Assembly (NCBI GenBank): GCA_964642275.1
Contig: CAZXOA010000001.1
Location: 12,729 to 76,728, forward strand
DNA: 64,000 nt
DNA from: an uncultured Candidatus Saccharibacteria bacterium
GTDB taxonomy: Bacteria > Patescibacteriota > Saccharimonadia > Saccharimonadales > JACDBH01
Reading direction: 5' to 3'
Shown: positions 48,937 through 52,160 of the stretch, one piece after another
Layout of the letters: every line of letters begins with the position of its first letter
Position numbering within the stretch: position 1 is the first letter of the stretch
The notes under the pieces: generated by a model
Databases searched by the model: none
What the model was told of the DNA's origin: nothing
Seen by the model: the letters and a program-made list of their open reading frames with translations, nothing else
Translations under genes and position numbers: made by a program

Positions 48937-49209
48937 ATGGAGATGACCCAAGACATCAGTATTACTGCCGAAGATGCTCAGCGCGCTGCGCAGTTGTGGC
49001 CAGCCTATGCTCACACTCCTGAGCATATAGGCGGTTTGTATGCCGGCGCGATTGCGGCCGGCGTACCGCCAGAAGCAGCACCTGGCTTGGTTGCTCGGGC
49101 GGCAGTTGAAACTGCCCCCACTAATATTCGTGCAAAGTGCGGTGACTTTTTAGTCGGTTTTGCTTTTGCCAGCCAAAACTACCATCCAGTCGATAAGGAA
49201 GCTAAGTAA
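48937..49209 (+). CDS. small unknown ORF intercalated between atpA and atpG
   Basis: 90 aa. It starts 5 nt after the atpA stop, and its stop abuts the next ORF's ATG. Confidence 0.35.
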   Translation: MEMTQDISITAEDAQRAAQLWPAYAHTPEHIGGLYAGAIAAGVPPEAAPGLVARAAVETAPTNIRAKCGDFLVGFAFASQNYHPVDKEAK

Positions 49210-49458
49210 ATGCCTTACGAAGATATGCCAACGGGCACGTTTCTAACTGTTGACAAGGTTTCCTTACTTGACATGTCAAAAGCTGCTGCTATTGCAAGAA
49301 TTTCGTTTGCAAGCAGGAACCAAGATGCCTACCAGGTAGTGGTCGGTGACAACCTGGTAGCTTGTATACATATTCACAATGGAATAAGCCCGATAGCACA
49401 AGAGATCCTTGATTCAAAAAATTCAGATGAAGAAGGAGACCGAGCAGCAAATGGCTAG
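49210..49458 (+). CDS. small unknown ORF intercalated between atpA and atpG (second)
   Basis: 82 aa. Its ATG directly follows the previous TAA. It overlaps the atpG start by 8 nt. Confidence 0.35.
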   Translation: MPYEDMPTGTFLTVDKVSLLDMSKAAAIARISFASRNQDAYQVVVGDNLVACIHIHNGISPIAQEILDSKNSDEEGDRAANG

Positions 49459-50320
49459 TACGCAGCAGCTTAAACGGCGCATCGGAACCGTCAAGAACAC
49501 TAAGCAGATTACCAAGGCTATGGAATTAGTAGCTGCTTCGAAGATGCGTAAGGCTACGGAGGCTGCGCATCGCGGTCGTGCCTACCGCGAGGCAGCGCAC
49601 AGTATGTTGGCCCGCTTGTCTACCGTGACCGAGATCACCGAGCACCCGTTGTATACGACTCGTGACATCAAGACTCGTCTGTATGTAGTTATCACTTCCG
49701 ACCGCGGCTTAGCTGGTGCGTACAATGCTAATATCATCAAGCTGTTGACGCGCGCCATCAAAGATGACCGTGCCGAAAAAATTCAGAGCCAGATTATCAT
49801 CGTGGGCAAACGCGGTGCGCAGTTTGTACGCCGGATCGAGGGTATCGACATTATTGCTGCATATGCAGACTTTGGTGATCATCCAACAGCCAATGATATC
49901 CGTCCAATTCTTGATACGGTTATTGAACAGTACCGCACTGAGGCAGTTGACCAAGTCCGTCTGCTGTACACCGAGCACAAATCCAATCTGGTACAGATCG
50001 CGCAGAATCTTGCTGTCCTGCCCGCCTCGTTCGATGCCGAAGCAACCGAGGAACAGGGCCTGGCTGACGTGACATTTGAGCCAAGCGTGCAAGAAGTGCT
50101 TGAGAACGTAACTGAGCGTCTGCTGGAGGTGCAGATCTGGCAAGCCATGCTTGAGTCAATCGCCTCAGAGCAGTCAATGCGCATGCTGAGCATGAAAAAC
50201 GCCACCGACAACGCAGGCGAAATCATCGACGACCTGACGCTCGAATTCAACACGGCCCGCCAGGCTAAAATCACCCAAGAGTTGGCAGAAATCACCGGCG
50301 GCGCGGAGGCAATGAAATGA
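49451..50320 (+). CDS. atpG: F0F1 ATP synthase subunit gamma
   Basis: N-terminus MASTQQLKRRIGTVKNTKQITKAMELVAASKMRKA matches the gamma consensus. AAGGAG lies upstream. Confidence 0.85.
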   Translation: MASTQQLKRRIGTVKNTKQITKAMELVAASKMRKATEAAHRGRAYREAAHSMLARLSTVTEITEHPLYTTRDIKTRLYVVITSDRGLAGAYNANIIKLLTRAIKDDRAEKIQSQIIIVGKRGAQFVRRIEGIDIIAAYADFGDHPTANDIRPILDTVIEQYRTEAVDQVRLLYTEHKSNLVQIAQNLAVLPASFDAEATEEQGLADVTFEPSVQEVLENVTERLLEVQIWQAMLESIASEQSMRMLSMKNATDNAGEIIDDLTLEFNTARQAKITQELAEITGGAEAMK

Positions 50321-50535
50321 GTGGCTGGTATAACCAACTCGAGGTTAGGGCGCTACTTACTGATGAGAGTGAGCGCGCACAGGCAGTCGCAGATATCTTT
50401 GATAATGCAATGATTGGTGAAGACTTACAGACATTACTCAAAATACGTGACAGCTACCCGAGGGCATTTCTGGAAACGGCGCTGGGCGGTTACCCCGATT
50501 ATTTAGACGCAAATGATTTGAGAGAGGAGCAATAA
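50317..50535 (+). CDS. small acidic unknown ORF intercalated between atpG and atpD
   Basis: 72 aa. It has an ATGA overlap with the atpG stop. GGAGG lies 9 nt upstream. Its stop overlaps the atpD start. Confidence 0.4.
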
Positions 50536-51929
50536 TGGCGACAGCAGAAAAAGTTAAATCAACAGTCGGAACTATCACCCAAGTCGTGGGTGTGGTGATT
50601 GATGCAGATTTCGGACAGGGACACTTACCGGCAATTTATAATGCGCTTGAGGTTGAGCTGCACGGCAAGAAATTGTTATTTGAAGTTGCACAGCACCTGT
50701 CTGAGTCAAGCGTGCGTGCGATTGCACTTGGCTCGACTGACGGCCTGGAACGCGGTGTCGAGATTAAAGACACAGGAGCACCGATTTCGGTGCCAATCGG
50801 CGAAGAAACGCTTGGGCGTATGTTCGACGTGGCTGGCCAGCCAATTGATGGCGGCGATAACAAGTTCAAGGCTTATGCGCCGATCCACCGCGAAGCGCCT
50901 GCCTTTACCGAGCAGTCTGGTAGTGTCGAAATTCTCGAGACGGGTATCAAAGTCATTGACTTGATTTGTCCAATTACCAAGGGCGGTAAAGTCGGTCTGT
51001 TCGGTGGTGCCGGTGTGGGCAAGACTGTGCTTATCCAGGAGCTTATCGGTAACATTGCTAAGTTCCACAGCGGCTACTCTGTCTTTGCTGGCGTGGGCGA
51101 GCGCACCCGCGAGGGTAACGATCTCTACCACGAAATGAAAGATTCCGGCACGCTCGAGAAGACCAGCCTCGTGTTTGGGCAGATGAACGAGCCGCCGGGT
51201 GCGCGTCTGCGCGTAGCGCTGAGCGGCCTGACCATTGCCGAGGGCTTCCGCGACAAGGGTTCCGACACCCTGCTTTTCATCGACAACATCTTCCGCTTTA
51301 CCCAGGCCGGTTCTGAGGTGTCCGCCCTGCTTGGCCGCTTGCCGTCGGCTGTGGGCTACCAGCCAAACCTGGCAACAGAAATGGGTGCCCTGCAGGAGCG
51401 CATTACCTCAACGCGCAAAGGTTCGATTACATCCGTGCAGGCTGTGTATGTACCAGCCGACGACTTTACTGACCCGGCGCCGGCTACGACTTTTGCCCAC
51501 CTTGACTCAACTATCGCACTTAACCGTGCGCTGACAGAACTCGGTCTCTACCCTGCTGTTGACCCGCTTGATTCAAGCTCGACAATTCTTGACCCGGAAA
51601 TCGTCGGCGAAGACCACTACCAAGTCGCGCGCGAAGTACAGCGCATCTTGCAGCGTTACAAGGATTTGCAGGACATCATCGCTATTCTTGGCATGGAAGA
51701 GTTGTCTGATGAAGACAAGCTGACTGTGTCTCGTGCCCGCAAGATCCAGCGCTTCCTGACCCAGCCGTTCTTTGTTGGCGAGCAGTTTACGGGTATCCCC
51801 GGCAAGTATGTTTCGCTGGCCGATACGATTGCCGGCTTCCGCGAAATCCTTGACGGCAAGCATGATGAAAAGCCGGAGAGTGCGTTCTATATGAAGGGCG
51901 ATATTTCAGAAGTAAAGGAAGCAAAGTAG
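50535..51929 (+). CDS. atpD: F0F1 ATP synthase subunit beta
   Basis: P-loop GGAGVGKTV and a DELSEED-like region (EELSDEDK). Confidence 0.95.
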
Positions 51930-52160
51930 GTGAGGATCCTTGAAGGTATTGGCGAATCAGCCAGTCAATGGCTCGCTAATCCTGATGGTGGGCCTGGCCA
52001 ACTGCGGCTTTTTGCTCCGGAAGGGCTCGGAAAAATCCTGGTTGGCTATATGGATTGTGGGTTTAGCCCAGAAAAAGTGAGAATCATGGTTAGAGACCCT
52101 AATGCCAATGACGTTTTGCATGTAAGACTACCTCATAGTTCGGGGGCAAACTGTGATTAG
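51930..52160 (+). CDS. small unknown ORF intercalated between atpD and atpC
   Basis: 76 aa. GTG start directly after the atpD TAG. It overlaps the atpC GTG start. Confidence 0.35.
   Translation: MRILEGIGESASQWLANPDGGPGQLRLFAPEGLGKILVGYMDCGFSPEKVRIMVRDPNANDVLHVRLPHSSGANCD

Follow-up and report, generated by a model that had tools for sequence, protein, structure and literature searches.

The ATP-synthase operon of an uncultured Candidatus Saccharibacteria bacterium (assembly GCA_964642275.1, contig CAZXOA010000001.1, positions 12,729 to 76,728; this stretch of 64,000 nucleotides (nt) is the window, and its own coordinates are used throughout, with genetic code 11 assumed) carries four small open reading frames (ORFs) among its F1 genes: ORF1 and ORF2 lie between atpA and atpG, ORF3 between atpG and atpD, and ORF4 between atpD and atpC. 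Comparison with related loci indicates that such intercalated cistrons are almost certainly a lineage-wide phenomenon that is specific to the F1 junctions. We favour, at slightly less than an even chance, the view that the four ORFs are the local case of a Saccharibacteria-wide set of dispensable, fast-evolving and translationally coupled small proteins with a plausible F1-related role. An earlier note on this DNA had placed the ORFs at these three junctions, with starts abutting or overlapping the neighbouring stops, and both points hold; what it missed is that these junctions, and no others, are hypervariable across the lineage and bear signs of gain, loss and stacking in the manner of cassettes. 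The genes from atpA to atpC read as follows (lengths in amino acids, aa).

47379-48932, plus strand: atpA, F1 alpha, 517 aa (Pfam PF00006 2.5e-81, PF00306 2.2e-41)
48937-49209, plus strand: ORF1, 90 aa, ATG start; an alternative start at 48943 gives 88 aa
49210-49458, plus strand: ORF2, 82 aa, ATG start, acidic
49451-50320, plus strand: atpG, F1 gamma, 289 aa from ATG 49451 (Pfam PF00231 1.6e-89)
50317-50535, plus strand: ORF3, 72 aa, ATG start, strongly acidic
50535-51929, plus strand: atpD, F1 beta, 464 aa (Pfam PF00006 1.1e-71, PF02874 1.2e-21)
51930-52160, plus strand: ORF4, 76 aa, GTG start, same frame as atpD
52153-52581, plus strand: atpC, F1 epsilon, 142 aa, GTG start (Pfam PF02823 1.1e-18, PF00401 2.3e-06)

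The start of atpG was set at ATG 49451, where the tblastn alignments of all relatives begin; a longer ORF from TTG 49409 is also listed. With this start, the cistrons from atpA to atpC are spaced by +4, 0, -8, -4, -1, 0 and -8 nt. The TAG of atpA is followed by cgag and the ATG of ORF1, the TAA of ORF1 abuts the ATG of ORF2, and the ORF2 terminus ..AATGGCTAG (protein end NG-stop) runs 8 nt into the start of atpG (ATGGCTAG). Further downstream, atpG and ORF3 overlap in ATGA, ORF3 and atpD overlap in TAATG, the TAG of atpD abuts the GTG of ORF4, and ORF4 shares 8 nt with atpC. Purine motifs resembling Shine-Dalgarno (SD) sequences precede ORF2 (AAGGAAG), ORF3 (GGAGG), atpD (GAGGAG), ORF4 (AAGGAAG) and, more weakly, ORF1, so that more of the ORFs carry one than the two first credited with it, and these motifs sit within the 3' ends of the upstream cistrons. 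The same geometry recurs in the relatives, where 82% of 480 junction distances fall within -8 to +10 nt, with modes at -4 (ATGA), -1 (TAATG/TGATG) and -8 that are shared by uninterrupted operons. The -8 mode is due to a TAG that lies within codons 2-3 of atpG and at which atpA ends in uninterrupted operons (again NG-stop) and the last gap ORF ends in interrupted ones, as ORF2 does in the window.

These starts and stops have the arrangement of translationally coupled cistrons, and on the strength of the sequence the ORFs are probably expressed by such coupling. A promoter-like site lies ahead of the atpI-like gene (44957-44986); promoter and terminator scans inside the gaps returned nothing convincing, and an Rfam scan of the window returned two tRNAs only, both away from the gaps. 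We propose that the four ORFs would be promoterless small cistrons in a single atp transcript, on which ribosomes ending an upstream cistron would restart at the overlapping or abutting start codons, with ORF1, ORF2 and ORF3 yielding folded, soluble, acidic small proteins. Stop-codon readthrough, considered for ORF4 (in frame with atpD past its TAG) and for ORF2 (in frame with ORF1), found no supporting evidence and was set aside.

With atpG as the query, 80 loci from genomes and 80 from metagenomes were obtained, almost all of them assigned to Saccharibacteria or Saccharimonadales, with gamma subunits 41-86% identical. Across about 170 related loci, gaps of at least 150 bp were distributed over the junctions of the operon as follows.

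A-G junction: gap of at least 150 bp in 45% of these junctions
G-D junction: gap of at least 150 bp in 60%
D-C junction: gap of at least 150 bp in 51%
B-E junction: gap of at least 150 bp in 6%
E-F junction: gap of at least 150 bp in 14%
F-H junction: gap of at least 150 bp in 5%
H-A junction: gap of at least 150 bp in 2%

All three F1 junctions are visible in 104 loci, and at least one of them is occupied in 80 of these (three in 33 loci, two in 34, one in 13; none in 24). The gaps are filled almost completely with ORFs in the direction of the operon, as is evident from the non-overlapping ORF tiling of 215 distinct gaps that are 90 bp long or longer.

Plus strand, observed: mean coverage 96% (median 99%); 88% of gaps at least 90% covered
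Reverse strand: mean coverage 45%; 4% of gaps at least 90% covered
Shuffled gap, plus strand: mean coverage 38%; 2% of gaps at least 90% covered

In the ten closest relatives, nucleotide homology ends exactly at the boundaries of atpA, atpG, atpD and atpC, and the gaps between them do not align.

The coding status of the four ORFs was assessed with a codon-usage log-likelihood trained on 51 long ORFs of the window, stop codons being excluded from the model, and compared with true 75-codon gene segments and with 269 spurious open stretches of the window. The scores of ORF1 and ORF2 lie at the median of the true segments and that of ORF3, the highest of the four, at their 80th percentile, and all three exceed every one of the 269 spurious stretches. 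Substitution patterns agree with this: between ORF3 and its homologues the proportion of non-synonymous change (pN) is 0.37-0.40 against a saturated synonymous proportion (pS) of 0.86-0.91, and between ORF2 and its homologue pN is 0.32 and pS 0.73, giving a pN/pS of about 0.43 for both, with pS saturated. For other gap ORFs in closer genome pairs the ratio of non-synonymous to synonymous rates (ω) is 0.10-0.35, compared to 0.004-0.055 for most flanking atp genes. The synonymous/non-synonymous comparison proposed in the earlier note thus came out in favour of coding, and the gap proteins are constrained while evolving several-fold faster than the subunits. ORF3 is indeed acidic, as had been noted, with a net charge of -0.125 per residue, and none of the four ORFs has a transmembrane-like (TM-like) segment (maximal 19-residue Kyte-Doolittle average 0.66-1.09). 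AlphaFold2 models ORF1 as five helices (predicted local distance difference test, pLDDT, 85; predicted template-modelling score, pTM, 0.79) and, at moderate confidence, ORF3 as helical (pLDDT 72); Foldseek searches of both models against the PDB gave no match at E<=0.001, and PDB sequence profiles gave none either. ORF1, ORF2 and ORF3 are very probably real coding genes. For ORF4 the chances of coding and non-coding are even, and it may be just an open spacer. Genuine coding sequences arranged for coupled translation are thus supported for the first three, through codon usage and positional homologues, and the earlier note's claim falls short for ORF4, which has no relative and a borderline codon score.

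Reading-frame conservation at the same position, a check named in the earlier note, was likewise found for ORF1 (about ten homologues), ORF2 (one) and ORF3 (five) and was missing for ORF4. In a profile search of 5.8 billion proteins (window protein E 3e-27), the ORF1 family had 10 members, 85-94 aa long, and all members whose context was checked lie within the atpA-atpG gap of Saccharibacteria, including lineages whose gamma subunits are just 51-56% identical. ORF1 of the window shares the family's hallmarks, that is, a length of 85-96 aa, the core G..(F/Y)AGA.AAG....A and the location between atpA and atpG. For ORF2, a HMMER search of 1.84 billion representatives retrieved a single relative (P0014, 78 aa, 54% identity), encoded directly 3' of atpA in L167, one of the related loci. 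A further match of ORF2, the 1703-aa repeat protein P0018 (E 1.7e-5), was judged to be due to chance; seven of its repeats share 'DAYQ(I/V)VVG(N/D)N'. ORF3 has three relatives at 45-51% identity in the same HMMER search and, after a profile search of the 5.8 billion proteins, belongs to a family of six including the window protein (70-81 aa). Its homologues are the cistron directly upstream of atpD in 7 of 7 contexts, mostly with the same ATGA and TAATG/TGATG overlaps, and ORF3 itself has the family's acidic character, its motif IFD.A...D...L....YP..(F/Y)L...LGGYPDYL and its place directly before atpD.

The ORF1 family surfaced only through blastp against the extracted gap ORFs, and tblastn of the ORFs against 160 related loci yielded no match at E<=1e-3. 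A word-indexed search with the four ORFs concatenated retrieved nothing from the 5.8 billion proteins, which reflects a limit of sensitivity, since HMMER later found the relatives of ORF2 and ORF3. No Pfam family matched any of the four ORFs at E<=1, NCBIfam, PHROGs and PADLOC returned noise only, viral contigs held no relatives, and no paralogues were found within the window. All four products are already recorded as called proteins, each as a singleton cluster at 90% identity.

Over all related loci, the diversity of the gap ORFs is considerable. Clustering of the 266 tiling ORFs gave 189 clusters, of which 149 are singletons. Among 148 cluster representatives a single one matches a Pfam family, PF05635 (23S rRNA intervening-sequence protein), and the same representative is also the only one with a PHROG match (Avd-like). 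NCBIfam added one weak FliH match and two isolated weak matches (SseB, PadG). Between 79 and 89% of the 266 ORFs are net acidic, with a mean charge of -0.06 per residue compared to -0.001 in the long genes of the window, and TM-like segments are rare. With the exception of PF05635, the families are junction-specific. We ruled out that all gap ORFs belong to one deeply diverged superfamily by comparing 39 families in 741 hhalign pairs; the four best remote links in this profile-profile comparison each fall within one junction, a hint that some of the diversity arose by divergence at the junction itself. One family is always the last ORF before atpD in 8-10 relatives and carries a C-terminal glycine repeat, AYxAGxxEG..GY. 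Its L113 member matched three FliH models with E values from 6e-5 to 5e-3, at scores that fall far short of the cut-offs. Members of this family and of PF05635/TIGR02436 lie at the following positions.

L113:597-914, L167:7133-7450, L001:7180-7470 and L002:7265-7540: FliH-repeat family, last ORF before atpD
L008:7301-7591, L060:7211-7441, L081:1869-2126 and L091:2407-2673: FliH-repeat family, last ORF before atpD
L006:7671-8084, L045:3963-4337, L062:3617-4009 and L072:8432-8800: PF05635/TIGR02436 four-helix-bundle genes
L126:2196-2582, L138:491-886 and L007:1315-1524: PF05635/TIGR02436 four-helix-bundle genes

Presence and absence of a gap ORF can be compared between the closely related loci L048 and L112, whose atp genes are about 95% identical and whose A-G junctions differ. 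L112 has a 353-bp insertion there (L112:3642-4000) with a 117-aa ORF that ends in DG-stop on the start of atpG, and in L048 this place is taken by a 6-nt spacer; the insertion shows no target-site duplication, no inverted repeat and no flanking repeats. The G-D and D-C ORFs of the two loci are 97.0% and 98.6% identical in nucleotide sequence, with a synonymous divergence (dS) of 0.03-0.06, compared to 93-96% and a dS of about 0.22 for the flanking atp genes. Given that less constrained genes would not be expected to be more similar than their neighbours, recent exchange is suggested.

Stacking of gap ORFs is associated with duplication of 3' ends. In the window, a 34-nt segment at the end of atpA recurs at the end of ORF1.

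48898-48931, plus strand: direct repeat copy 1, 34 nt, 3' end of atpA
49175-49208, plus strand: direct repeat copy 2, 3' end of ORF1 (protein end NYHPVDKEAK-stop)

The copies are identical at 26 of 34 nt, each ending 1 nt before the last base of the stop codon, and copy 2 provides the SD motif of ORF2. L167, with subunits 90% (alpha), 83% (gamma) and 91% (beta) identical to those of the window, has the swapped order atpA, ORF2 homologue, a 96-aa weak member of the ORF1 family, atpG, and its block of atpA 3' end plus ORF2 aligns with the block of ORF1 3' end plus ORF2 in the window. In the same locus, a 166-aa ORF 3' of atpG ends in 49 of 53 nt of the atpG end, and shorter 3'-end copies occur in L008, L087, L091 and L037. 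An ORF bearing a duplicated 3' end is always the first of a multi-ORF gap. At L119:502-633, an A-G ORF repeats at its beginning the 13 residues with which atpG starts, a 5' counterpart of these duplications.

From these observations, we suggest a route by which cistrons might be added. The junctions downstream of alpha, gamma and beta alone hold variable, junction-specific ORFs, subject to gain, loss and stacking. As a new cistron comes to lie ahead of an existing one, the junction module, that is, the last 16-53 nt of the atp gene with its SD motif and overlapping stop and start, may be duplicated; the new ORF would thereby sometimes copy the terminal part of the atp gene before it, where the ribosome-binding site of the next cistron is located, and both downstream starts would retain their coupling signals. 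Unequal or illegitimate recombination between junction 'alleles' could be the source of the duplication, with natural competence supplying the DNA; Saccharibacteria are naturally competent (PMC10633639).

The likeliest function of the gap proteins would be that of dispensable, lineage-specific factors acting on nascent F1, either in assembly or in restraining hydrolysis. An F1-related function is favoured by the families never being found away from their atp junction, by only the F1 junctions being populated, and by the FliH-type repeat in the family before atpD; even so, we regard it as tentative, and somewhat more doubtful than assured. In transposon sequencing of Southlakia epibionticum, every ATP-synthase gene was dispensable, and the authors suggest that the enzyme may work in reverse; Saccharibacteria have no respiratory chain (PMC10633639). 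Dispensability together with a possible reverse mode makes both hydrolysis restraint and tolerance of insertions plausible. The suggestion that the four ORFs encode accessory subunits, assembly factors or inhibitors, made in the earlier note, turned out to have position as its sole basis, and junctions that are empty in many genomes, with unrelated ORFs in the closest relatives, argue against conserved subunits. We consider it unlikely that the F1 of Saccharibacteria has an entire layer of junction-encoded small partners, serving alpha, gamma and beta as assembly factors or regulating ATP hydrolysis, whose evolution is so fast that they look like about 190 unrelated families, and which are stacked with a duplicated 3' end and swapped between lineages by natural transformation.

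Comparison with known systems gives partial likenesses. Relative to canonical F1Fo subunits, the four ORFs have no Pfam or NCBIfam match, and hhalign finds the duplicated terminus only. Regulators of F-type ATPases, namely the epsilon C-terminal domain, Paracoccus zeta, mitochondrial IF1 and cyanobacterial AtpTheta, are likewise small (about 50-110 aa), soluble, mostly helical and lineage-restricted, and would suit a fermentative organism with a reversible enzyme. However, these regulators are not encoded between F1 genes, and the gap ORFs are far more variable and often absent; neither these regulators nor the F1 chaperones Atp11 and Atp12 showed similarity in Pfam, NCBIfam and PDB profile searches or, for ORF1 and ORF3, in Foldseek. 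Similar to the gap ORFs, atpI/atpZ (PF09527, PF03899) and AtpQ/AtpR of N-ATPases are extra small cistrons co-transcribed in the atp operon, but they encode widely conserved membrane proteins beside the Fo genes, whereas the gap ORFs are soluble, hypervariable and confined to the F1 half; with no Pfam match and no TM-like segment, the four ORFs do not belong to AtpI/AtpZ. FliH regulates FliI, the flagellar homologue of F1 alpha and beta. The family found before atpD in relatives has a FliH-type AxxxG/GxxxG repeat and a FliH match at E 6e-5, but this match reaches 22 bits against a cut-off of 293 and is limited to the repeat region, and the family is absent from the window, where ORF3 holds the same slot without being related to it; the window ORFs give no NCBIfam match to FliH/SctL.

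Other parallels concern mobile or lineage-specific genes. The PF05635/TIGR02436 proteins of seven relatives use the same three atp junctions and are co-oriented and coupled like the other gap ORFs, but they are the only family at more than one junction, and none of the four window ORFs is a member. A survey of insertion sequences in the candidate phyla radiation concerns rRNA genes and reports 23S_rRNA_IVP ORFs there, with Saccharibacteria an exception (bioRxiv 10.1101/2024.02.27.582315). Integron cassettes and the morons or hyperplastic regions of phages are, like the gap ORFs, promoterless, co-oriented and mostly orphan small ORFs with rapid turnover between close relatives and an external promoter. 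In contrast to integron cassettes, spacings of -8 to +4 nt leave no room for an attC site (about 60-140 nt), and the gap families are tied to one junction; no integrase was seen, in the course of an analysis that included no systematic whole-genome integrase search. Eukaryotic supernumerary F1 subunits, such as p18 on trypanosome alpha, set a precedent for lineage-specific small F1 partners, but they are fixed in their lineage, whereas the gap ORFs are patchy and at most putative F1 partners.

Several observations weigh against the reading that we favour. The distribution is patchy: 24 of the 104 fully visible loci have no occupied junction, about half of the related genomes are empty at any given junction, and even the closest relatives (atpG 80-86% identical) have unrelated ORFs or none at the same junction. 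The 189 clusters with their 149 singletons are hard to reconcile with one conserved function, and known ATP-synthase subunits, chaperones and inhibitors show no sequence or fold similarity to the ORFs. PF05635 genes occupy the A-G, G-D and D-C gaps in different genomes among the seven related loci, which suggests that the junctions are permissive landing sites. ORF4 is an orphan that matched only itself among the 1.84 billion representatives searched with HMMER, its codon score lies at the 5th percentile of true segments with 1.1% of spurious stretches scoring higher, and the GC content at third codon positions of the four ORFs is 0.37-0.47, compared to 0.57 for the genes of the genome.

The main rival reading is that the ORFs are hitch-hiking cassettes, for which the F1 junctions offer permissive, highly expressed and coupled landing pads; the proteins would be unrelated to ATP synthase and either selfish or engaged in host interaction or in conflict, and they would pass from one Saccharibacterium to another through natural transformation, the conserved atp genes serving as arms for homologous recombination. 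In its favour are the full replacement of gap content among close relatives, in which homology stops right at the ends of the atp genes, together with the A-G ORF of L112 that is missing from L048, the unusually similar G-D and D-C ORFs of the same pair, the swapped order of ORF1-like and ORF2-like genes between the window and L167, the 3'-end duplications at stacked ORFs, the presence of PF05635 genes at all three junctions, the many families with hardly a Pfam match among them, and the natural competence of these bacteria (PMC10633639). Yet all placed members of the ORF1, ORF2 and ORF3 families sit at the same atp junction and none elsewhere, the one fresh insertion has neither integrase, attC-like spacer, target-site duplication nor inverted repeat, no phage relatives were found, and the Fo junctions of the same transcript are uncolonised. 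We regard this explanation as a serious possibility that is nevertheless rather doubtful.

It is improbable that the gaps are translated spacers without protein function, in which selection would act only for open, phased DNA that keeps coupling without polarity. While the near-perfect ORF tiling, the stop/start geometry that is kept whatever the sequence, the orphan status and borderline codon score of ORF4, and the SD-bearing 3' ends being the best conserved parts are all in line with such spacers, a pure spacer would be expected to have an ω near 1, and pN is well below pS in ORF2, ORF3 and other gap ORFs. In addition, families are kept across lineages with diverged gamma subunits, the predicted fold of ORF1 is confident, and an acidic, soluble composition is common to the gap ORFs. 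The notion of a purely open spacer is therefore contradicted for ORF1, ORF2 and ORF3, and possible for ORF4. We give a similarly small chance to the ORFs being decayed partial tandem duplicates of neighbouring atp genes, a hypothesis of origin that would fit any functional reading. The ORF1 terminus that copies the end of atpA, the copied atpG end in L167 with its shorter equivalents in four other loci, the atpG-like opening of the L119 ORF, and a few gap ORFs with weak colinear matches to gamma or epsilon speak for it; but without the duplicated terminus the ORFs are not significantly similar to atp proteins, and when 39 families plus 152 singletons were compared by hhalign with profiles of alpha, gamma, beta and epsilon, termini alone matched. 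Finally, mis-assembly or chance ORFs in non-coding spacers can be practically discounted. The related sequences are mostly metagenome-assembled genomes (MAGs), which invites this concern, but the independent Logan assembly SRR16797981 is 100% identical across 3125 bp, and its gene caller predicts ORF1 (as 88 aa), ORF2 and ORF3; moreover, the same architecture is present in the closed MAG chromosomes L009, L028 and L058, and the tiling statistics lie far beyond the shuffled controls.

The gene order atpA-G-D-C is among the most conserved in bacteria, and it is broken at three junctions in about three quarters of the Saccharibacteria loci. Within the literature covered, our search found no description of intercalated ORFs in the atp operons of Saccharibacteria or other organisms, so that the arrangement appears undescribed, and with those of ORF1 and ORF3 it includes two new families of small proteins. 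Extra small cistrons embedded in operons are a known kind, and given that no new mechanism has been demonstrated, we do not call the arrangement categorically new. If the proteins bind F1, supernumerary or regulatory partners of such a kind would be a first among bacteria, and they could help to explain how an enzyme that is dispensable in culture is controlled where a respiratory chain is lacking (PMC10633639). Should the ORFs be hitch-hikers instead, the junctions would provide a natural example of how cistrons can be inserted into a coupled operon without breaking it, through junction duplication, as well as a compact source of novel small proteins, and the lineage has by now become genetically tractable.

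The operon as a whole is a complete F-type ATP-synthase operon on the plus strand, in the order atpI-B-E-F-H-A-G-D-C, with strong Pfam matches for every gene tested. Its upstream half has no intercalated ORF, with spacings from atpI to atpA of -8, 37, 31, 2 and 0 nt, and the relatives have an identical gene order in this half, as judged by Pfam labels.

44995-45342, plus strand: atpI-like (ORF list)
45335-46165, plus strand: atpB (ORF list)
46203-46409, plus strand: atpE (ORF list)
46441-46965, plus strand: atpF (ORF list)
46968-47378, plus strand: atpH (Pfam OSCP)

The delta subunit encoded by atpH has 136 aa, and its OSCP match is limited to profile positions 96-172, so that the N-terminal domain which normally binds alpha seems to be reduced or divergent; the subunits of relatives have 126-136 aa. 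ORF1 was considered as a stand-in for this domain and rejected, since a short delta is universal in the group and ORF1 is rare.

A number of minor features were observed in individual loci. L167 has a 55-aa ORF (L167:2869-3036) in the normally tight atpF-atpH junction, which brings its intercalated ORFs to a total of seven. In L030, a D-C gap of 3.8 kb (L030:8309-12094) contains a Crp/cNMP-binding regulator (L030:8335-9030) and minus-strand ORFs, and atpC is thereby parted from the rest of the operon. The atpD gene of L043 is apparently split, with the C-terminal 307 aa as an ORF of their own (L043:8602-9546), for which a frameshift, an assembly error (the genome is a MAG) or an insertion are possible causes. 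The gamma subunits of L136, L124, L139-L143 and L135 have 320-328 aa compared to a median of 289 aa, which points to an internal insertion. In the window, a 176-aa ORF antisense to atpC (52099-52629, minus strand) is a spurious shadow ORF and was left out of the training set. Upstream of the atp operon and divergent from it, a glutaredoxin-like 80-aa ORF and an adjoining 62-aa ORF lie on the minus strand (44440-44872), and an equivalent pair of 76 aa and 69 aa is found upstream of the operon in L162 and L163.

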